Source of the DNA: a virus
Taxonomy: Duplodnaviria; Caudoviricetes
Direction: 5' to 3' (one strand)
Virus record (IMG/VR): IMGVR_UViG_3300009442_000023
Span: 1 to 30,592 of that record
Length of the DNA stretch: 30,592 bases
A model generated the notes under the pieces. That model had not been told where the DNA came from. It did no database searches and was given only the letters and a program-made list of their open reading frames with translations. Shown in pieces: positions 1-19,426 of the stretch (the stretch's first letter is position 1; each line of letters opens with the position of its first letter). The translations under genes and the position numbers were made by a program.

Positions 1-83
1 TCCCTGCTCTTTGGTATAACCGATGTAACCTTTGCGGGGTTACGTAGCGTAAGTAATAACGCCTTATCATCTACTATCTTCAT
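1..83 (-). CDS. N-terminus of probable SNF2/DEAD-like helicase (runs off window)
   Basis: ATG at 83 overlaps the upstream stop (ATGA 80-83) and reads MKIVDDKALLLTLRNPAKVTSVIPKSR. It resembles helicase N-termini recalled from similar phages; no helicase motif lies inside the window. Confidence 0.5.
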   Translation of the reverse strand, partial: MKIVDDKALLLTLRNPAKVTSVIPKSR

Positions 84-493
84 ATCTGTACGAACTCCGT
101 CATTGGTATATACATACATGTTTCAGTGTCGTGGCTATCGTTTCTATCGTGCCTACCTCCTAGGCGTTTCTCGTACCTATCTTCCAGAACTACCGTAAAC
201 ACTCCATCAGTAAACCGCACAATTAATAAGGGTATTACTTTATCCTCTTTGCTCATACGTAATATGCTATCAACCTTCATAGCACTTATCATATAAGTGA
301 GGTACTTATCGCTCGCATTAGTTCGGGTTTTGATTTCTACATTGCCTACATGCTTACCATCTTGGAATAGTAAGCCGTCTATAGAGGAGAATGGTTCGGA
401 CTTCTCATATGTAAACTTACCTTTAGATTCTATATACTTCTTTATGTAACCCTCGTTACTACGGTCAAACTCACTTTCATACACGGGACGCAT
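80..493 (-). CDS. PD-(D/E)XK-family nuclease-like protein
   Basis: Motif E...SIDG...VEIKTR. Start moved to ATG 493 (MRPVYE), which has a GGAGA RBS. Confidence 0.65.
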   Translation of the reverse strand: MRPVYESEFDRSNEGYIKKYIESKGKFTYEKSEPFSSIDGLLFQDGKHVGNVEIKTRTNASDKYLTYMISAMKVDSILRMSKEDKVIPLLIVRFTDGVFTVVLEDRYEKRLGGRHDRNDSHDTETCMYIPMTEFVQI

Positions 494-499
494 TTGTTT

Positions 500-900
500 C
501 TCCGATGCAAAATAGCGTGAAGTGGGTGTCCACGTCACACTGAAATATAATTACTTGTTAACACGTTAAGGTGATAACACCTACACACTCTGTTAATGGG
601 TAGACTGAAAACTGGATAACCGTACAGCCCAGTCAGGTCGTGGCTTTGCTACCTAGGTAACAAAAATGTCTCCGCCATACTAAACGACTTAATAAATCGT
701 TTACCTAATTATTATACCGTTTTAGTAGCCCTGCTTCGTCCACAGATAGGGCTAGGTCTGCATTATGTAGGGACTAGCGATGAATATAGCACTAGCCCGT
801 TAGACTACTCGATTTTATGCCGCTGATTCTTAATGCCATAAGGAGAGGCACGACATCATTTAAAGACGCATCAAGCACGCGTCAACCCATACCAATAGGG
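500..900 (-). ncRNA. Candidate large structured RNA (unassigned family)
   Basis: Intergenic interval with more than 10 stems found by eye; many pairs are G-U only on the minus strand. See findings. Confidence 0.6.
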
Positions 901-906
901 AGTTCT

Positions 907-1179
907 TTACTTAGGCTTTCTACTGCCTTTCTTTTTATAGTTACGGCTACGGTTTTTTGAGCGGTCTTCTACTGTAACACCGTCTTTGTTAGTGCCGCCT
1001 TTGCTCAGTGCCTTCTTGTGACTAACGTCTTTACCTTCACGCTTGTCAGCCTTGCCGTTACCGTTGGCGTCTTTACCTTCTCTATCCATCTTGCGTCTGG
1101 CGCGTTGCCGCTCCATCCTACGTTCAAACGTGTCACTGCCGACAGGGGCGTTGACCTGCTTCTTTCTTTTCTTACGCAT
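907..1179 (-). CDS. Small basic HNH-like endonuclease
   Basis: DVSHKKALSKGGTN...NRSRN resembles an HNH core. Probable start is ATG 1179, coupled to the upstream stop (TAATG). Confidence 0.6.
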   Translation of the reverse strand: MRKKRKKQVNAPVGSDTFERRMERQRARRKMDREGKDANGNGKADKREGKDVSHKKALSKGGTNKDGVTVEDRSKNRSRNYKKKGSRKPK

Positions 1180-6291: not shown

Positions 6292-7149
6292 TTATTTCAC
6301 CTCTCTGTATTCTTCATGTGACGTAGTGAACGCGCCCATGTAGTTAACCCACGTATTGAACTTGGCGCGGAACTTCTTAGGGTCACTTGTTAGGCTGACG
6401 TTAGTAGTTGGGTTTGTGTCTCTCCAGTACCTGTTACCCATGCTAGCTGATAACTCACACAGGAACGCGTGTACCATAGTGGTACGTTGCTCGTGTTGAT
6501 CGTCCATCAGCATGTCTCTAAACGTGTCACCCCTGACTGTATTAGCGCCCCACGTTGCATCGCGGTTTGAATCCCAGCCCATAGTGCCCTCAAGTATCGG
6601 GGTCATAGTCCACGCCCAGTGCAAGTACTCGTCGATAGCTTTCTTGTACGGCGCCTTGGCTTCTTTGTTAACACGTACTCGTGTGATAGGTACAGGGTGC
6701 GGGTCGCTCGTCAATGTCCATGCCCCAGTCTGTTTACTGGTGGTAAACACCACCGGCTTGGCAACATCCTTGGGTAAGTAGTAGCGGCTGCCGTCATAAC
6801 GTATGTACTGCTTGCCGCTATCCACAATGAAGTCCATGCCCAGAGGCATACACCGCTCAAGGAACGAGTACCTGCCATTGTGTGCATAGTCACCCGTCTC
6901 GTTACGAAACCATACTGTGTCAGTGCCATCGGCATTGCGAGTCCAGACCACTGCGGCAGTTCCGGCATAGCGTTGATGCTCCCCGTAATCTGATAACACG
7001 TACTGGTGTGGGGACACCTTGATGATACATTCCCACTTACGTCTGCGGTCACCCATAGGCACTATGTTAGTACCCCTGATTGGTTTGGTGTTGTTGTACA
7101 AATGTTCCACGTGCGTGAAACTGTCTAGCCCATAATTATACATAGCCAT
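6292..7149 (-). CDS. Hypothetical early protein
   Basis: 285-aa ORF preceded by a GGAG RBS within the repeated cassette. Confidence 0.8.
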   Translation of the reverse strand: MAMYNYGLDSFTHVEHLYNNTKPIRGTNIVPMGDRRRKWECIIKVSPHQYVLSDYGEHQRYAGTAAVVWTRNADGTDTVWFRNETGDYAHNGRYSFLERCMPLGMDFIVDSGKQYIRYDGSRYYLPKDVAKPVVFTTSKQTGAWTLTSDPHPVPITRVRVNKEAKAPYKKAIDEYLHWAWTMTPILEGTMGWDSNRDATWGANTVRGDTFRDMLMDDQHEQRTTMVHAFLCELSASMGNRYWRDTNPTTNVSLTSDPKKFRAKFNTWVNYMGAFTTSHEEYREVK

Positions 7150-7545: not shown

Positions 7546-7826
7546 ACCAATCTCCTGTTTAGCCATTCGCCTGATAACTTCTCAGTGGGCGTACTGAAAG
7601 AACTTTTTTGTCTAGGGGTAGTGTTGCTCCTAGGTCTGCTACCAAACCTACTATCACCATACATAGGGCGCAGATGTGAGTCATGCACCTCCAATGCTTT
7701 GTGTAGTCTGGTAGCCATTGCGTTATGCGGCACGCCCGATACACTCGCGTACTCTCTCGCCGTATACATGTGTCCTGTTACTAAGTCAGGGTGTGAACCC
7801 ATAAACTTTATAAGTCGTGCCGCCAT
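7542..7826 (-). CDS. Putative helix-turn-helix DNA-binding protein
   Basis: YTAREYASVSGVPHNAMATRLHK is HTH-like; TAATG coupling. Confidence 0.5.
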   Translation of the reverse strand: MAARLIKFMGSHPDLVTGHMYTAREYASVSGVPHNAMATRLHKALEVHDSHLRPMYGDSRFGSRPRSNTTPRQKSSFSTPTEKLSGEWLNRRLV

Positions 7827-9040
7827 TATATATCCCTCGATTTGATGTGTACTGCCTTACCCTCATCGGGTACTGCGCCCTTGTTATCCAGTATCGCCCA
7901 GAGTATAGGGCAAGTCCAGTCACCCCAGCCAGAGTACAAGTAGCCATCAGTAAGGACGATACACGCTTGGGGCTTGATACCCTCGTCGGCCATGTACTGC
8001 GTGACACAGTTGACATCGGTACCACCACCACCCATAGGCTTGGTAGACTTGACCAGATTGTCTAGGTCGTGCATGTCGTATACCTCGTCACCCACAACAC
8101 TGCTACCCCAGTACAGTAGACGTAGCTTGTCAGGTTTGACTGTGTCGCATACACCCTTGACCTCAGACAGGAACGCTGTCAACTCTCGTTGTCTGACAGA
8201 GCCTGACGTGTCAATGGCAATGACCAACTCACCCACCTGCTCACTGATACCGCTAGGCATGATGATACCCTGACTCATCAACCTGCGATTGGGTCGAGCG
8301 TATGTAGAGTAGTCGCTACCTGCACACGTATTCTGGATGAACTCACGTAGCACCTCGCGCCAGTCAACCTGTGGCTGTAGTAACTCGTCGAGATCGCGGT
8401 TGCCTGTACCCCCCATCTTACCTGCGGCCATGGCACCCTGACGTATAGCCTCGTCAATGTCACGCGCCAACTCACGCTTGTCCTCGTCGGATAGAGACTG
8501 CGCACCCTCCCAGTCATGCTCGTCAAGTCCTGCGGTGCCGTCTTCACTCTGTCCACCATCACCCTGTGAGTCTTGCGACTGCTCGTCTTGCTCCTTGCGT
8601 AGGATGTTGAACACCTGTGCGCTGTCCATACCACGGAACCGTTCATCGACTAGCCCACCCTCGGGCAGTGTGGCGAACCCATCTTGCCTGTTGTCATCGA
8701 CGATCTTGATGTTGATAACGTAGTCACACGCGCAGTTAGCTAGGTGTGGGTCAATGTCATACATCCACTTCCATATCTCAAGGTGACGGTGTAGCTTGTG
8801 TCCCTCATCCTCGTGCAGTACTAGCCCACGCAATTCGGCATCGGTCAGTCCGTCAACGAATGCACGTCCGTACTTCACATCACGCCCGTTGGTACACGCT
8901 GTCGGTACATCGTCCTCGATAGTTTTCTCACCGATCATCAACACACCTGCTAGTGCTGTATATCTCGGGTGTCCCATGATGGCAACGACTGCTTTGGACA
9001 GTCGCTCCTCTGCTGTAAGTTGTTTACCTATAGTTAACAT
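7826..9040 (-). CDS. Metallopeptidase-like + VWA domain protein (DUF2201-like)
   Basis: PTACTNG, LHEDEGH, NCACDYVIN; acidic linker; VWA MIDAS motifs DTSGS, GGGGT, LTDG. Confidence 0.85.
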   Translation of the reverse strand: MLTIGKQLTAEERLSKAVVAIMGHPRYTALAGVLMIGEKTIEDDVPTACTNGRDVKYGRAFVDGLTDAELRGLVLHEDEGHKLHRHLEIWKWMYDIDPHLANCACDYVINIKIVDDNRQDGFATLPEGGLVDERFRGMDSAQVFNILRKEQDEQSQDSQGDGGQSEDGTAGLDEHDWEGAQSLSDEDKRELARDIDEAIRQGAMAAGKMGGTGNRDLDELLQPQVDWREVLREFIQNTCAGSDYSTYARPNRRLMSQGIIMPSGISEQVGELVIAIDTSGSVRQRELTAFLSEVKGVCDTVKPDKLRLLYWGSSVVGDEVYDMHDLDNLVKSTKPMGGGGTDVNCVTQYMADEGIKPQACIVLTDGYLYSGWGDWTCPILWAILDNKGAVPDEGKAVHIKSRDI

Positions 9041-9227
9041 GATTTACTCCCGTAAATACTCGGACTCTACGTCCACACATACTACACCTTGATACCCAGT
9101 CACCGGCTGGCTTGGTACACCGACAATACCTATTGCGAGTATCCTCCGCGAACTCGTACCTACCACACGTCTTAAACTTGGTAGGGTGTAGTCTTAGTTG
9201 TAACAATTCGCTACGCGTTATCTTCAT
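9024..9227 (-). CDS. Small Cys-rich putative zinc-binding protein
   Basis: CRC...CSMC; ATGA overlap with the ATPase stop. Confidence 0.55.
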   Translation of the reverse strand: MKITRSELLQLRLHPTKFKTCGRYEFAEDTRNRYCRCTKPAGDWVSRCSMCGRRVRVFTGVNHVNYR

Positions 9228-10294
9228 ACCTTGTCACTTGCGAACATGTAGTTGTTCTGCATAGCCCACGTGGTGAACTCCTTACTCTGCATCACAACAT
9301 CGCGGTGCGCATACGAGTTAGCACGTATGCCATTGGCGAACAGACCTTGCGCCTCCTTGTCGAGACGTTGCATGTACGTCACCCACGCATCAACCCAGTC
9401 ACGTTGCATCGCACCCATAGCACGGAACACTGTCATACATACTGCTGATGCTGACTCGGGTACTTTGGCATTGAGCGGATCGTCCTTGATAGACTGTAGG
9501 CTCGGTAGTTGGTCGGCCAGCTTCACAAACGCCATCATGTCCATAGCGCCACGATCACCGATAGTACCCATAAGTAAAGCTGTTAGGGTGTGATCGTCAT
9601 ACTGATCGCGTAACTTGAGCACGTCACTCGCGGCCTCCAATGATCTTGGGGTGATAAACGCGGCACGCGACTGCTTGGGGTGGAAGATGTACGGGTTGTC
9701 ATCGGGGTTCTTCACGTCCTCGAAGCCTTGCAACACCTGTGGAAACTCGCGCACGAACCCGAGCACACTGTGATCGACACCGTTACTGATACCCCAGTCG
9801 ATAAACTCGTCACTGGTAGACTTGCGTGCTGTGACCACTGTGATGCGATTGCGTGCGTGTGGTGGTAGCAGATCGCCCACACCCTCTGCGCCTAGGTTGG
9901 TCGTGGCGAATATGATACTGCCCTCGGGGAATCGGTTGCGTTCCAACATATCACGTAGTAACGCGTTCTTGACTGATGCATTAGCCTTACCGTACTCGTC
10001 GATCATTAGTATCACCGGCTTGTCGAGGTGCAACCCCAACTCCTCATTGGGTAGGTATGTCACGTACCCCTGCTCGGTGTTGAGTGATGGTATGCTCAGA
10101 TCACCCAAGTCCTTGGTCGTACAGTCGAAGTAGCATGGCGTGTGGGTAGGGAATCTATCTGCTAACGTCTTTAACAGTGATGACTTACCGTTACCCATGT
10201 GACCCTGTATGAGTATGGTGCGTTGGTGGCCAACAGTAGCGATAGCGTTGGCGATCTGGTCTAGCGATAATGCGTACATATTTTGAGTGTTCAT
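9224..10294 (-). CDS. AAA+ ATPase (MoxR/CobS-like)
   Basis: Walker A GHMGNGKS, Walker B LMIDE, sensor ATTN, NR arginine finger, TPRS. Confidence 0.9.
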   Translation of the reverse strand: MNTQNMYALSLDQIANAIATVGHQRTILIQGHMGNGKSSLLKTLADRFPTHTPCYFDCTTKDLGDLSIPSLNTEQGYVTYLPNEELGLHLDKPVILMIDEYGKANASVKNALLRDMLERNRFPEGSIIFATTNLGAEGVGDLLPPHARNRITVVTARKSTSDEFIDWGISNGVDHSVLGFVREFPQVLQGFEDVKNPDDNPYIFHPKQSRAAFITPRSLEAASDVLKLRDQYDDHTLTALLMGTIGDRGAMDMMAFVKLADQLPSLQSIKDDPLNAKVPESASAVCMTVFRAMGAMQRDWVDAWVTYMQRLDKEAQGLFANGIRANSYAHRDVVMQSKEFTTWAMQNNYMFASDKV

Positions 10295-10298
10295 AATG

Positions 10299-10342
10299 GT
10301 ATTGCTCCAATTGTTTTGTATACATATGTATACATTTAGTTT
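10299..10342 (-). repeat. 44-bp palindrome+RBS cassette, copy A
   Basis: 42/44 identical to 11451-11494; contains TGTATACATATGTATACA (10317-10334). Confidence 0.9.
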
Positions 10343-10344
10343 AG

Positions 10345-10533
10345 TTACAGCGTTTCAACAATGCGGCCATCAACGGCCACGATCTTGTAATACGACACGC
10401 GGTGCGTACGTAGCGTGCGTAGGTTCTTGTAGTGCTTGGTGCGCTTGTAGTTGCGCACTCGTAACACCGTTTGACCGTCAAGGTTTCCCAGTATCTGACG
10501 GTCGTTTGAGTCATAGGCTTCAACGTAATACAT
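10345..10533 (-). CDS. 62-aa basic hypothetical protein
   Basis: Probable start ATG 10533 (MYYVEAY), just after the upstream stop, with GGAG RBS. Confidence 0.6.
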   Translation of the reverse strand: MYYVEAYDSNDRQILGNLDGQTVLRVRNYKRTKHYKNLRTLRTHRVSYYKIVAVDGRIVETL

Positions 10534-10534
10534 A

Positions 10535-11446
10535 TCACAACTCCAATGATGGTAGTGACTTGATGACATCGTCCACTGCCTGTTTGGTTTCGGCACGGAA
10601 AGACTCGTTATTGCGTAGCCCATCGGGAGTGACCCCGCGTAGCGTATCGTCTAGCTTACGCGCCATCTCGGACATCTGGCTGTCACCTGCTACGTTACAC
10701 ACGTTAAGCAGTTCTACCATGTCGAGCACGTTGTCAACTAATGAATCGCGAAACACTTTCTTCTTGTCATCGCCACCATAGTCTAGCCGGTCGGACATAT
10801 TAGACAGTGCTTTGTACGTACGTTGCCACACGTCACTCATCGCGGAATCCAACTGCTTGCGGTAGTACTCGTTATAGTGCGACTCCAACACGTCACGCTG
10901 CTCGTTGCCCACGTCAACACGAAAGTCACCGGCCTCGGGTAGCGGAATATATGAGATGTTGAACGCGAACTTGCTACGTATCGACGCCTCGGTCGGGTAG
11001 TCATCGGCCCGAAACAAACTACCGATCCGTGCCTGTGCCCTGCTCACCTCCCACGTATAGTTGTTACAGAACGTATCGACCATGTTCTCGAACTCGTTTT
11101 GCAGCTCGGTCATCTGCTGGTGGTACTTGAAGTATTGCGCGGTCGGTAGCAGTCGCATACCCAGATCGCTCCATGGCATTGTCATGCTGTAGTGGATGTT
11201 GCGTGCGCTTGCCACAAATTTCTGTATGGCGGTCAACTCGTCGCAGTTACCCAGTAACTTCTTATTGACTGATGCCGTACCGTTATCGGCATAGTTCTGG
11301 CTAGTCACTGATGCGGATGCTGACTTGTCTTTCTTGCGCCCCGTCCAGCAACTGATCTTCAACTCGCCCAACATGGCACTCGACCCGATTGATGGTGCGC
11401 TTGCCTGTGGTGCTGTTGTTACTACCATTTGATTTAGATTGTTCAT
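10535..11446 (-). CDS. DUF3150-like protein, first gene of early operon
   Basis: L.IS.WTGRKKD, TMPWSDLGMRLLP, DYP...IRSKF; typical neighbour of AAA/VWA pairs. Confidence 0.65.
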   Translation of the reverse strand: MNNLNQMVVTTAPQASAPSIGSSAMLGELKISCWTGRKKDKSASASVTSQNYADNGTASVNKKLLGNCDELTAIQKFVASARNIHYSMTMPWSDLGMRLLPTAQYFKYHQQMTELQNEFENMVDTFCNNYTWEVSRAQARIGSLFRADDYPTEASIRSKFAFNISYIPLPEAGDFRVDVGNEQRDVLESHYNEYYRKQLDSAMSDVWQRTYKALSNMSDRLDYGGDDKKKVFRDSLVDNVLDMVELLNVCNVAGDSQMSEMARKLDDTLRGVTPDGLRNNESFRAETKQAVDDVIKSLPSLEL

Positions 11447-11494: not shown

Positions 11495-11550
11495 GTGCTG
11501 ACACGTTTAGCTGTGTCGCCCCGTAGGCCATAACTCGACCTACTAAAACC

Positions 11551-11578
11551 ATTATACAGGAATGGCGGCTTATGTCAA
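11551..11578 (-). promoter_or_regulatory. Consensus sigma70 early promoter
   Basis: TTGACA (11578-11573), 16-nt spacer, TATAAT (11556-11551). Confidence 0.85.
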
Positions 11579-11656
11579 ATGGTACACAAACGTGTTGTTT
11601 AGTGGGTAGCGGTGTAGTGTACTACGTTGTACTAGTGTGTACCTACGTGTGGTCTG

Positions 11657-11968
11657 TAAGTTATTGATTTTAAAACAATGTTACTTTGTTACCTTTTTCG
11701 TGGAAATATGAGGGTATTATTTTAAGGTGAAAGGGGAGGTAACAAAGGCAGGATTTTTTGAACTCCGGATACTATTTTTGTAAAAGGTAACATTATAAAT
11801 TATTTATTAAAAAGAGTATAAAAAAGGCCATTTTCCGCATATGCCTGATCATGCATTGTCACGAAACAGCACGTTTAGATACTTTTTGTATTGTTACTTT
11901 TTGGCCTAAAAAAAGGTAACATTGCGGTAACATTACAAGAAAAAAAGTAACATTGTAAAAGTAACAAT
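11657..11968. other. Putative replication origin
   Basis: ORF-free AT-rich stretch; IHF consensus WATCAAN4TTR at 11657-11669 (minus strand); nine GTAACA/TGTTAC copies. Confidence 0.55.
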
Positions 11969-12141
11969 GCGACCCGCCACGCGAGAGCTATAACTGGTAT
12001 CTATAAAATGTATACATATGTATACAAGCCACACTGTCCACGCGCTAACGTGCCATGGTGTGCGACCCGCAGCGCGGCAGCTATAACTGGTATCAGCAAC
12101 GTCACGCGAGGCGCAACGCGGAGGCTGGAACTGGTATCAGC
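11968..12141. repeat. Three imperfect ~34-bp direct repeats ending AACTGGTATC
   Basis: 11968-12001 and 12061-12094 are 30/34 identical; third copy at 12112-12138. Confidence 0.85.
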
Positions 12142-12158
12142 CGACTTTTCTCGGGGCG

Positions 12159-12184
12159 AAAAAAAAGCCCCGCCGGAGCGGGGC
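12159..12184 (-). terminator. Rho-independent terminator
   Basis: GCCCCGC-TCCG-GCGGGGC followed by T8 on the minus strand. Confidence 0.9.
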
Positions 12185-12190
12185 CAGTTG

Positions 12191-12301
12191 TTATCCTTGT
12201 ATCAGTAACCAAACCATAGTGAGTAGGACAGCACCAGCAGGGATTAGAAAAATCAGAGCCAGCGCCCCTAGAATTGTTTTAGTGATTTCATTTTTTGTCA
12301 T
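12191..12301 (-). CDS. 36-aa single-TM peptide (not in ORF track)
   Basis: MTKNEITKTILGALALIFLIPAGAVLLTMVWLLIQG*; GGAG RBS; ends just before the terminator. Confidence 0.65.
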   Translation of the reverse strand: MTKNEITKTILGALALIFLIPAGAVLLTMVWLLIQG

Positions 12302-12342
12302 AACTTACTCCAGTGAGAATGGCCATCCTTGGCCGGTGGTGA

Positions 12343-12936: not shown

Positions 12937-13016
12937 AACTTAATACCTTGTAAAATGCGCGGGCTTGTAATGGTGCCGCGTTAACCAACCAAACCAGTGT
13001 TGGCTTGATGGTTCAC

Positions 13017-13044
13017 ATATTAACAGGTTTAGGCGTGATCGCAA
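13017..13044 (-). promoter_or_regulatory. Possible sigma70 promoter for the 12936 gene
   Basis: TTGCGA, 16-nt spacer, TAATAT with TGn extension; the 18-bp palindrome lies just upstream (13061-13078). Confidence 0.4.
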
Positions 13045-13332
13045 TAGATAGGTTACAAATTGTATACATATGTATACATTACTGGCGATCTGGTAGGTTT
13101 AATCACAGATGGCCAGAATCCGATACCTACCCCGCCCCCATGACCCGCTATGTCAGGACGGAGTCCCGGCGCTCTATATATTACTAATTTCCACGAATAA
13201 ATCGTTATTTTTTGAGTTCGGCACCCCTACCCCCTCTATATAGGAACACCCCCCACCTCTTTTTCCGACCCCTTGTAAAAAATTTTTTATACTGTACGGT
13301 GTACGTTCTAGTAGGTATTACGTGGATAGCGA

Positions 13333-13767
13333 GTGAAGAGAGTAAAAGACAGGCTAGACAACACGGCACATATAGGGAGAGTAGGTGAGTTTTTTGCTAT
13401 GTATGTTTTAGAGCGTCACGGGGTAGAGTGCTACCATGTAGACCGTTCCGGCGTAGACCTATGGGGACAGTCGTACTACGAAGACATGTTCACGTTGCAG
13501 ATAAAAGCAGCAAACCTAGCTACCCTGAAGAGGAAGGATTCCAAAGACCAATACAAGTATTGTTTTAATATACGCAAAGAGCGTATAGCAGACTTCCATA
13601 TGTTTATAGCTTTAGACATACAGCGAGTGATGGTAAAAAGAACAAAAGACTTGAAAGCGGCTTGCAGTTTACAGCTATCCGCAGATGCATTTACAGAAGA
13701 AGTAGAGGAGGAAGGGCTAGACCTCCTCCGTAATTTTAGAAGGGAAGGCCGTCCTCTAGGGCTATGA
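13333..13767 (+). CDS. Free-standing PD-(D/E)XK endonuclease
   Basis: GRVGE...GVDL...LQIKA motif (E, D, QxK). Confidence 0.7.
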   Translation: MKRVKDRLDNTAHIGRVGEFFAMYVLERHGVECYHVDRSGVDLWGQSYYEDMFTLQIKAANLATLKRKDSKDQYKYCFNIRKERIADFHMFIALDIQRVMVKRTKDLKAACSLQLSADAFTEEVEEEGLDLLRNFRREGRPLGL

Positions 13768-13828
13768 CAAATAGTCCTGCCACCACAAGTACACACGCCG
13801 AAACAATAAACACAGTAAAACCAAACAC
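13736..13828 (-). CDS. 30-aa hydrophobic peptide antisense to the late arm (not in ORF track)
   Basis: GTG start with GAGG RBS; MFGFTVFIVSACVLVVAGLFVIALEDGLPF*; upstream TTCCGA-N17-TACAAT. Confidence 0.5.
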   Translation of the reverse strand: MFGFTVFIVSACVLVVAGLFVIALEDGLPF

Positions 13829-14006
13829 AAAGGAACCTCAGAACAGTAGGGGGTTGAAAGAGGCGCTATTGTACAAGTGATCGAGTATGATCGGAAATGT
13901 ATAATAATCATGTAAGACATATCATTTATGGTATGTAACTGTTTCTTGTCTTGTGTAAACAAGTATGGTACAAAGGCACTCCGGTTTAACAACCTGCGAT
14001 TACAAT

Positions 14007-18849: not shown

Positions 18850-19047
18850 ATGGCTAAAACCGTCTTTGACGTGCTCAAAAATAAAATCGAGGATGACATG
18901 TCCTCTGCAACAGAATTTCTAGGTAATGGTGGGGCTAAAGACTTCGCTCAGTACAAAGAAATAACAGGAATGCTACGAGGTCTCACTTCCTGTCTGAATC
19001 ATGTAAACGACCTCTCGCGTAATTATTTGGAAGAAGATGATGACTGA
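18850..19047 (+). CDS. Small hypothetical protein
   Basis: 65-aa ORF between portal and GroES-like gene; YKEITGMLRGL. Confidence 0.7.
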   Translation: MAKTVFDVLKNKIEDDMSSATEFLGNGGAKDFAQYKEITGMLRGLTSCLNHVNDLSRNYLEEDDD

Positions 19048-19426
19048 GTTAACGATAGTACCTAAAGAAGCAGAAAACGATGAAGAGCTTGACCTTCAAA
19101 TCCCCACACCCGTGGGATACCGTGTCTTAGTAGCTATGCCGGAAGTAGAAGATACATACGGCGAAAGCGGCATTATTAAGTCTAATAAAGAAATACACAA
19201 CGAATACATTATGTCTACCATCGGGGTTGTACTCGATATGGGAGCACAAGCGTATTCTGATAAAGAGCGTTTTACTACTGGCCCTTGGTGTAAGACAGGA
19301 GACTATGTAATGTTCCGTGCCAATACTGGTACACGTTTTAAAGTAGGTGGTGTTGAGTATCGTCTAATGAACGATGACTCAATTGAGGCAGTAGTAAGCG
19401 ATCCTCGTGGCGTTACACGAGTGTGA
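19037..19426 (+). CDS. groES: GroES/Cpn10-like co-chaperonin
   Basis: PVGYRVLV...SGII...GVVLDMG...KTGDYVMF...YRLMNDDSIEAVV. Confidence 0.85.
   Translation: MMTELTIVPKEAENDEELDLQIPTPVGYRVLVAMPEVEDTYGESGIIKSNKEIHNEYIMSTIGVVLDMGAQAYSDKERFTTGPWCKTGDYVMFRANTGTRFKVGGVEYRLMNDDSIEAVVSDPRGVTRV

Follow-up and report, generated by a model that had tools for sequence, protein, structure and literature searches.

A modular RNA with two pseudoknots in the replication operon of uncultured aquatic phages

An RNA of 157 nt with two pseudoknots, module A, was delimited at positions 727..883, minus strand, of a 30,592-nt stretch of phage DNA (the window; IMG/VR record IMGVR_UViG_3300009442_000023, positions 1 to 30,592). 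Matched base changes preserve its fold in many uncultured phages of aquatic origin. The spacer that contains it, 494-906, is a stack of separable parts, A, B and C, and not one unit. Functionally, module A may be a cis-acting, nuclease-stalling boundary that divides the replication-operon mRNA, an assignment put forward tentatively by analogy and weighed below against its rivals.

Results

Gene setting

The window is a partial record of an uncultured phage; coordinates are window positions and the sense strand is the minus strand. The minus-strand replication arm carries genes for DNA polymerase A and a PD-(D/E)XK exonuclease, an HNH-like gene, the spacer 494-906, a second PD-(D/E)XK gene and an SNF2 helicase gene. 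Directly upstream of the spacer, the small basic HNH-like gene (907..1179, minus) was assigned to PHROG 4590 (E 1.5e-7) and gave no Pfam match; the member of this family in the complete genome G013 matches HNH PHROGs, and PF01844 only below cut-off. An optional PD-(D/E)XK gene (PF24579, E 4.6e-27; 80..493, minus), with its likely start placed at 493 by alignment, is inserted ahead of the helicase. Of the SNF2-family helicase gene only the beginning is present (1..83, minus), with the same N-terminus as in full-length relatives, which match PF00176 and PF00271.

Elsewhere in the window, a DUF3150, ATPase and VWA/metallopeptidase gene trio lies in the early arm (7826-11446), a GroES-like gene follows the portal gene (19037-19426), and the stretches 11550-12340 and 12940-13960 between the two arms are long and ORF-poor. 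Other passengers were seen in the slot between HNH-like gene and helicase (L407, L088, L094): ahead of module A, a gene resembling staphylococcal nuclease (PF00565) and, in phages that lack the RNA, unrelated ORFs.

Composition of the spacer

As originally predicted, no gene was found in 494-906, where the longest sense-strand stop-free stretch encodes 37 amino acids. The original prediction further described one RNA of about 400 nt, folding end to end. All ten of the listed stems pair fully, and five use G-U pairs on the minus strand; as a set they are not separate, as 701-707 overlaps both 695-702 and 706-712. Stem 726-732/748-754 does pair, not as a simple hairpin but as one arm of a pseudoknot. 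Stem 865-871/877-883 pairs as well, and its two innermost base pairs compete with a pseudoknot that the prediction had not contained. The long-range stem 547-553/706-712 is possible only where module B is present. Compared with shuffles, the folding energy of the 413-nt spacer is only slightly better (z = -1.60, with 6/100 shuffles equally stable; plus strand, z = -0.79), and relatives keep, lose and swap its parts separately. The end-to-end fold was therefore abandoned, and the conserved unit is the 157-nt module A.

Relatives were fetched through flanking proteins. Their spacers fell into size classes of about 14-34 nt (no RNA), roughly 190-290 nt and up to 413 nt. The intermediate class consists of the first 186 and last 45 nt only, to which the 413-nt form adds a middle insert. 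BLAST of the spacer against cultured phages gave only chance matches of 27-33 nt, a promoter scan gave a single site, at chance level, and no terminator was found after module A.

Fold of module A

Module A (model match 113 bits) was defined by covariation and comprises two domains. In the 5' domain (806..883, minus), the loop 870-877 of helix P1 (879-883/865-869) pairs with 806-813, forming PK1 (95.9% paired, with both-side changes in 6/8 pairs). Between P1 and the PK1 partner stands a variable hairpin, P2 (stem 850-856/817-823), whose apical hairpin (834..850) has an anti-Shine-Dalgarno-like loop (about 838-846), recognized by the enrichment described below. In the 3' domain (727..805, minus), P3 (802-805/738-741) closes the variable hairpin P4 (790-798/771-779) and P5 (757-761/742-746), and PK2 forms between the P5 loop (748-753) and the tail (727-732), which follows a purine-rich linker (733-737). 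This domain is a three-way junction, and the partner of its third loop is the stretch of strand that immediately follows the closing helix.

Along the strand the order is P1, loop, P1', P2, A-rich linker, PK1 partner, one A, P3, P4, P5, loop, P5', P3', purine-rich linker and PK2 partner. P5 runs directly into P3, with no bases between their 3' strands. The linker after P3' reads GAAG in 49 of 51 distinct cores and GAAA in the other 2. A806 and the G805-C738 pair are invariant in the set collected without a pattern. Invariant unpaired bases are few and lie mostly in A-rich linkers, which would fit an architectural rather than a ligand-binding element. The folding energy of module A alone (z = -0.58) is uninformative, as the folding program ignores pseudoknots. 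A GU-rich run immediately before P1 was seen in L102, L141, L600 and L614; in some members this run is expanded into long dinucleotide repeats.

Covariation

For the main alignment, made with MAFFT, 40 sequences were selected out of the window and 51 distinct cores; many of them were pattern-found. In this alignment 93.4% of 1,318 cells are paired (P1, 100%) and 20/34 pairs change on both sides, counts that are inflated by relatedness. None of 500 shuffles reached the observed values, and slid controls were 33-44% paired. Because many of the 40 sequences were pattern-found, the test was repeated on 19 held-out members, found via the helicase only and aligned to a model without pseudoknot pairs. 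Here the 10 counted pseudoknot pairs were 97.4% paired, 5 of them with both-side change, against 17-56% in slid controls. A pattern imposing no complementarity gave 120 viral matches, and P3, P5 and PK2 were satisfied in all 120. G-U cells are far commoner than A-C cells in the conserved helices (47 to 1 and 29 to 2), which fixes the minus strand as the sense strand and argues for RNA. RNA-level selection on the minus strand, proposed from the G-U pairs for the whole spacer, is thus well supported for module A, and conservation and covariation in related phages are present for this part.

Distribution and genomic context

From a pattern scan, module A was estimated to occur in about 250 IMG/VR stretches. 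In GTDB, one pattern gave no match and a looser one gave 4, all of which fail the pairing tests; the helicase-neighbour regions of Xp15, Rollin, RHph_TM3_14A and Effie gave no match to the module A model. A loose 5'-domain pattern returned mostly chance matches, 3 of the 80 searched loci being members. One copy is present in the window's record and one in each of 15/15 larger records. Among loci with both HNH gene and helicase, module A is present in 92/165 and missing in 73/165. On a quick tree of 53 helicases its presence is clustered, with 4 changes needed and 1 forced by well-supported branches, so that module A is inherited by lineage and optional.

Module A sits directly behind a same-strand stop codon. 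The gene after it is the helicase or the PD-(D/E)XK gene in 77/78 pattern-selected loci, and the HNH gene lies upstream in 66/68. Co-occurrence with a nuclease gene is not obligate, as seen from the PD-(D/E)XK relatives (module A upstream in 28/80), the HNH-helicase loci counted above and the relatives of the G013 protein (1/80). The suggestion that the RNA might be a partner of the PD-(D/E)XK nuclease is not supported by these numbers: 52/80 relatives of the gene are without the RNA, and the gene occurs in only 35/192 RNA loci. It is a passenger, and module A needs neither it nor an adjacent helicase start. The distance from module A to the next start codon ranges from 12 to 339 nt and exceeds 50 nt in 36/59 members, whereas PK2 ends at most 20 nt before the start codon in 20/59.

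The replication arm of the complete genome G013, representing one lineage, ends with the primase gene; module A stands at the end of this gene and faces, tail to tail, a convergent PHROG 4590 gene whose stop codon it abuts. The G013 helicase, 5.8 kb upstream of module A, is without a copy, and no same-strand gene lies behind the RNA. Two complete tandem copies of 96-98 nt each, both without P2, were found at L714:935-1139, and L635 keeps the 3' domain while P1 and P2 are missing. P2 is dispensable, and module A shrinks to about 97 nt.

At L546:830-1100, three tandem elements shaped like the 3' domain, in a spacer of otherwise different appearance, occupy the same HNH-helicase slot and are not scored by the model. 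Tandem look-alikes of the 3' domain, likewise unscored, were also found by eye and descriptor in L545, L547 and L548. The tandem-element spacers of L545-L547 gave no Rfam match.

Modules B and C

Module B (541..720, minus; 7 distinct variants) is an optional insert present in a minority of carriers, most of which have A alone or A + C. Its variants show candidate crossing helices (713-719/673-679 and 701-707/654-660), a hairpin (694-702/682-690) and a second candidate knot (651-654/635-638 with 641-645/626-630), all on the minus strand. Across the 7 variants none of the crossing helices or the second knot has more than one compensatory change (one each in two helices), several mismatches occur, and the structure is weakly supported. 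A c-di-GMP-I riboswitch was considered for module B and rejected, since neither the window nor the L010 spacer gave an Rfam match at E up to 10. Expanding 8-9-nt tandem repeats take the place of module B in 32 fetched loci, some of which are redundant. Where the module is deleted, 3-11 tandem copies of the 8-9-nt unit separate module A from the helicase (L012, L052, L054, L138, L562 and others), and the window has one copy; the array could reflect slippage or could be a set of iterons or a decoy array.

Module C (515..540, minus; z = -5.5) is a hairpin in the leader of the next gene, whose Shine-Dalgarno sequence (500-503) lies about 12 nt further downstream. In 16 variants 8/9 pairs are kept in all rows, and the outer stem shows compensatory changes. 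Module C travels with the beginning of the next gene, and a look-alike occurs without module A in L653 and L658; it may be a translational operator. In L636 (upstream of 1201) the PD-(D/E)XK gene and module C sit after a duplicated helicase start, which suggests that module C and the nuclease gene move together as a cassette.

Contigs from RNA libraries

The RNA libraries containing most of the window are labelled aquatic or freshwater metagenome; runs with a small share were left out. Contigs from 5/8 RNA-library runs bridge the whole or most of module A unbroken, including 805/806, and cover it together with flanking genes. One contig, X6, spans only 474-886, a single-study hint. As these contigs carry no information on strand, ends, level or depth and DNA carry-over is possible, they show only that the uncut sequence exists in RNA libraries.

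Complementarity of the P2 loop

Anti-Shine-Dalgarno words were found in 43/59 P2 regions, against 16.9 +/- 3.3 in shuffled sequences and 13/59 for P4; inside hairpin loops they were found in 34/54 for P2 against 8/45 for P4. The enrichment in P2 is real, and a target match is seen only in some lineages. The match of P2 to its own downstream ribosome-binding site (RBS) is better than swapped ones in 28/59 cases, which amounts to no preference. In 15 records, own P2 was compared with RBS windows at a minimum of at least 7 bp, giving 25/249 early-strand and 11/209 late-strand windows, with about 13 matches expected for swapped P2s (sum of means). Three of the 15 records rank in the top 5% (G007, G008 and G014, of which G008 and G014 represent one P2), and 4/15 are without an early match. 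The leaders of 3-4 early genes in G008/G014 carry a repeated tag, with which P2 pairs at 12/13 bases; in G007 P2 pairs 9 bases with the tag of the ATPase gene. In the window's clade, 7 bases of the P2 loop are complementary to the RBS of a small gene, the second one beyond the helicase. Overall this match is made in 7/16 pairs (permutation p 0.036) and fails in 9/16, the rows being close kin. In the minimal members L714, L424, G009 and L635, P2 is missing or lacks the anti-Shine-Dalgarno motif.

An extended RBS tag, GGAGCAAUA, is common to three early genes of the window (6292-7149, 9224-10294 and 10535-11446, all minus). No antisense copy of this tag was found on the minus (RNA) strand of this record. 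The P2 of one relative is its exact complement.

Discussion

From the fold, strand, modularity and context described above, we infer a function for module A by analogy with known elements. Module A would be transcribed in sense as part of the replication operon, and exoribonucleases of the host would stall at it. Messages on either side could then be processed and decay separately. What remained would be a stable RNA that, in most members, would display the anti-Shine-Dalgarno loop, and this loop might damp translation of other phage genes. The distances of 12 to 339 nt from the next start, the position at an operon end and the tandem copies indicate a role that is not tied to one ribosome-binding site. 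Nuclease stalling is favoured because module A looks position-independent, has in its 3' domain the helix graph of exonuclease-resistant RNAs (xrRNAs) and has few invariant unpaired bases; the unbroken contigs from 5/8 RNA libraries also speak for it. It is weakened because 73/165 related loci do without module A and because the 5'-end pairing of xrRNAs cannot form in it. The 5' pseudoknot and the anti-Shine-Dalgarno loop are not required under this model. We regard it as possible and as the best of the readings considered, while short of probable.

Less likely, the anti-Shine-Dalgarno words enriched in P2 loops could mark an antisense regulator in which the knots provide the stable scaffold for a P2 loop that pairs with the RBSs of early or replication genes, like C4-type RNAs. 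The long pairings in G008/G014 and G007, the excess of early-strand over late-strand windows and over the expected number, and the small-gene pairing in the window's clade are consistent with such a role. It is made doubtful by the indifference of P2 to its own downstream RBS, by the 3/15 genomes reaching the top 5% and the 4/15 without an early match, by the closely related rows and the 9/16 failures of the small-gene test, by the window's repeated early tag having no antisense copy on the RNA strand and by the minimal members lacking P2 or its motif.

Ranked after this, and unlikely, is a new class of self-cleaving ribozyme that would process the replication message, most plausibly by a cut at the base of P3 that separates A806 from G805. 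The core of about 97 nt would then form a self-cleaving (or ligand-gated) class with a glmS-like helix order, acting on the replication message of aquatic phages, and P2 would be an optional slot for an antisense loop. A compact double pseudoknot with variable peripheral hairpins would suit a ribozyme, A-G is invariant at the putative cut site, and the order P3, P4, P5, P6 seems to parallel P2.2, P1, P2.1, P2 of glmS. A precedent is the phage hammerhead 13 nt before the HF1/HF2 helicase gene (PMC3088659). On the other side, contigs of 5 RNA libraries bridge 805/806, a weak point given possible DNA carry-over; hammerhead block C and the second glmS core word are found in 0/59 members and the twister word is absent. 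Moreover, there is no P5-P3 loop where glmS has residues 47-50, and invariant unpaired bases are few.

Lower again stands control of the gene that follows, be it the helicase or the inserted nuclease, by module A as a riboswitch or as a translational operator in the style of the T4 gene 32 leader pseudoknot. The helicase or PD-(D/E)XK gene downstream in 77/78 pattern-selected loci and the 20/59 members with PK2 ending within 20 nt of the start codon argue for it. Regulation of the helicase in cis, one of the roles first suggested, is weakened by the 36/59 members lying more than 50 nt away, behind modules B and C, and by the complete genome G013, where the helicase is without a copy and the RNA, located away from it, has no same-strand gene behind. 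The lack of a terminator after module A also counts against a riboswitch or operator, which we consider rather improbable.

A role as RNA partner of the small HNH-like protein, also raised at the outset, is weaker and quite improbable: the HNH gene is upstream in 66/68 pattern-selected loci and the G013 RNA abuts the stop codon of a same-family gene on the opposite strand, both away from the helicase, but the gene occurs without the RNA in 73/165 loci and in 79/80 relatives of the G013 protein, the motif surrounding the conserved His looks no different whether or not the RNA is present, and no guide-like segment was found. Least probable is the whole 400-nt spacer as one large non-coding RNA, for which the extent of the X6 contig and some compensatory changes in module B could be cited, since the three modules assort independently of one another, carriers mostly have A by itself or A + C, and the whole-spacer z is -1.6.

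Module A is uncatalogued in Rfam. With the Rfam 15 covariance models, 0 matches at the gathering threshold were obtained in the window and 20 related loci, and only sub-threshold, unrelated matches at E up to 10, none of them inside 494-906; group I intron and RNase P words were not found either, in line with the original prediction. Literature searches returned no description of this RNA, and an exact-motif search gave unrelated papers only, among the matches listed. The accessible part of a 224-motif survey does not mention such a context (PMC5737381). IMG/VR spacers have been mined for 8,495 anonymous candidates (PMC10690425); the four text supplements of that study contain no match to the motif, and part of module A may be listed unnamed among its candidates.

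The well-defined fold, the natural minimal form of about 97 nt and the dozens of covarying variants make module A a convenient subject, and a few days of in vitro work would suffice to test each of the three readings, nuclease block, self-cleavage and antisense loop. If module A stalls nucleases, the principle of the xrRNAs of eukaryotic RNA viruses would reach DNA phages; if it cleaves itself, ribozymes would gain a class. In both cases there would be an explanation for the division of long phage replication messages in the absence of promoters and terminators.

Comparison with known systems

The C4-type antisense RNAs of phages P1 and P7 have an exposed loop complementary to ribosome-binding sites, as does P2. 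Module A differs in its pseudoknot core, in the optional nature of the loop, in the lineage-limited target match and in giving no Rfam C4 match. The pseudoknot in the T4 gene 32 leader is a translational operator, and module A is likewise a pseudoknot ahead of a phage replication gene; it is, however, a larger two-domain fold at a variable distance, in one case without a downstream gene.

In glmS, the helices follow each other along the strand as P2.2, P1, P2.1 and P2. The 3' domain of module A appears to share this four-helix order and has an A-G step at the beginning of the first helix. In contrast to glmS, it has no P2.1-P2.2 loop (residues 47-50), no glmS gene and no Rfam match, and the core words occur in 1 and 0 of 59 members. 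The names of the glmS core elements P2.2, P1, P2.1 and P2 are those of PMC7125110.

In hammerheads, block C (CUGAnGA) lies between stems I and II, and there are six block orders, non-circular permutations included (PMC10085705). All six orders were tried and rejected for module A, block C being found in 0/59 members and nowhere in the spacer, and the linker being GAAG, not block G (GAAA), in 49/51 cores. The A-G...C-G-A-A around P3 recalls stem II with block G, and the phage helicase-leader position is shared, but the bases at the place of block C covary in module A as a pseudoknot arm.

Flaviviral xrRNAs are three-way junctions in which the third loop pairs with downstream sequence; tandem arrangements occur, and both Xrn1 and the bacterial RNase J1 are blocked by them (PMC5760640). 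The pairing of the 5' end with the junction, typical of the mosquito-borne class, cannot form in module A, which is without junction bases between P5 and P3. Module A further differs in residing in a DNA phage, in its extra upstream pseudoknot, in having no Rfam match and in that its nuclease resistance is only proposed. Its 3' domain nevertheless has the same helix graph, a junction with a loop-to-downstream pseudoknot, and module A, too, occurs in tandem and in a viral untranslated region.
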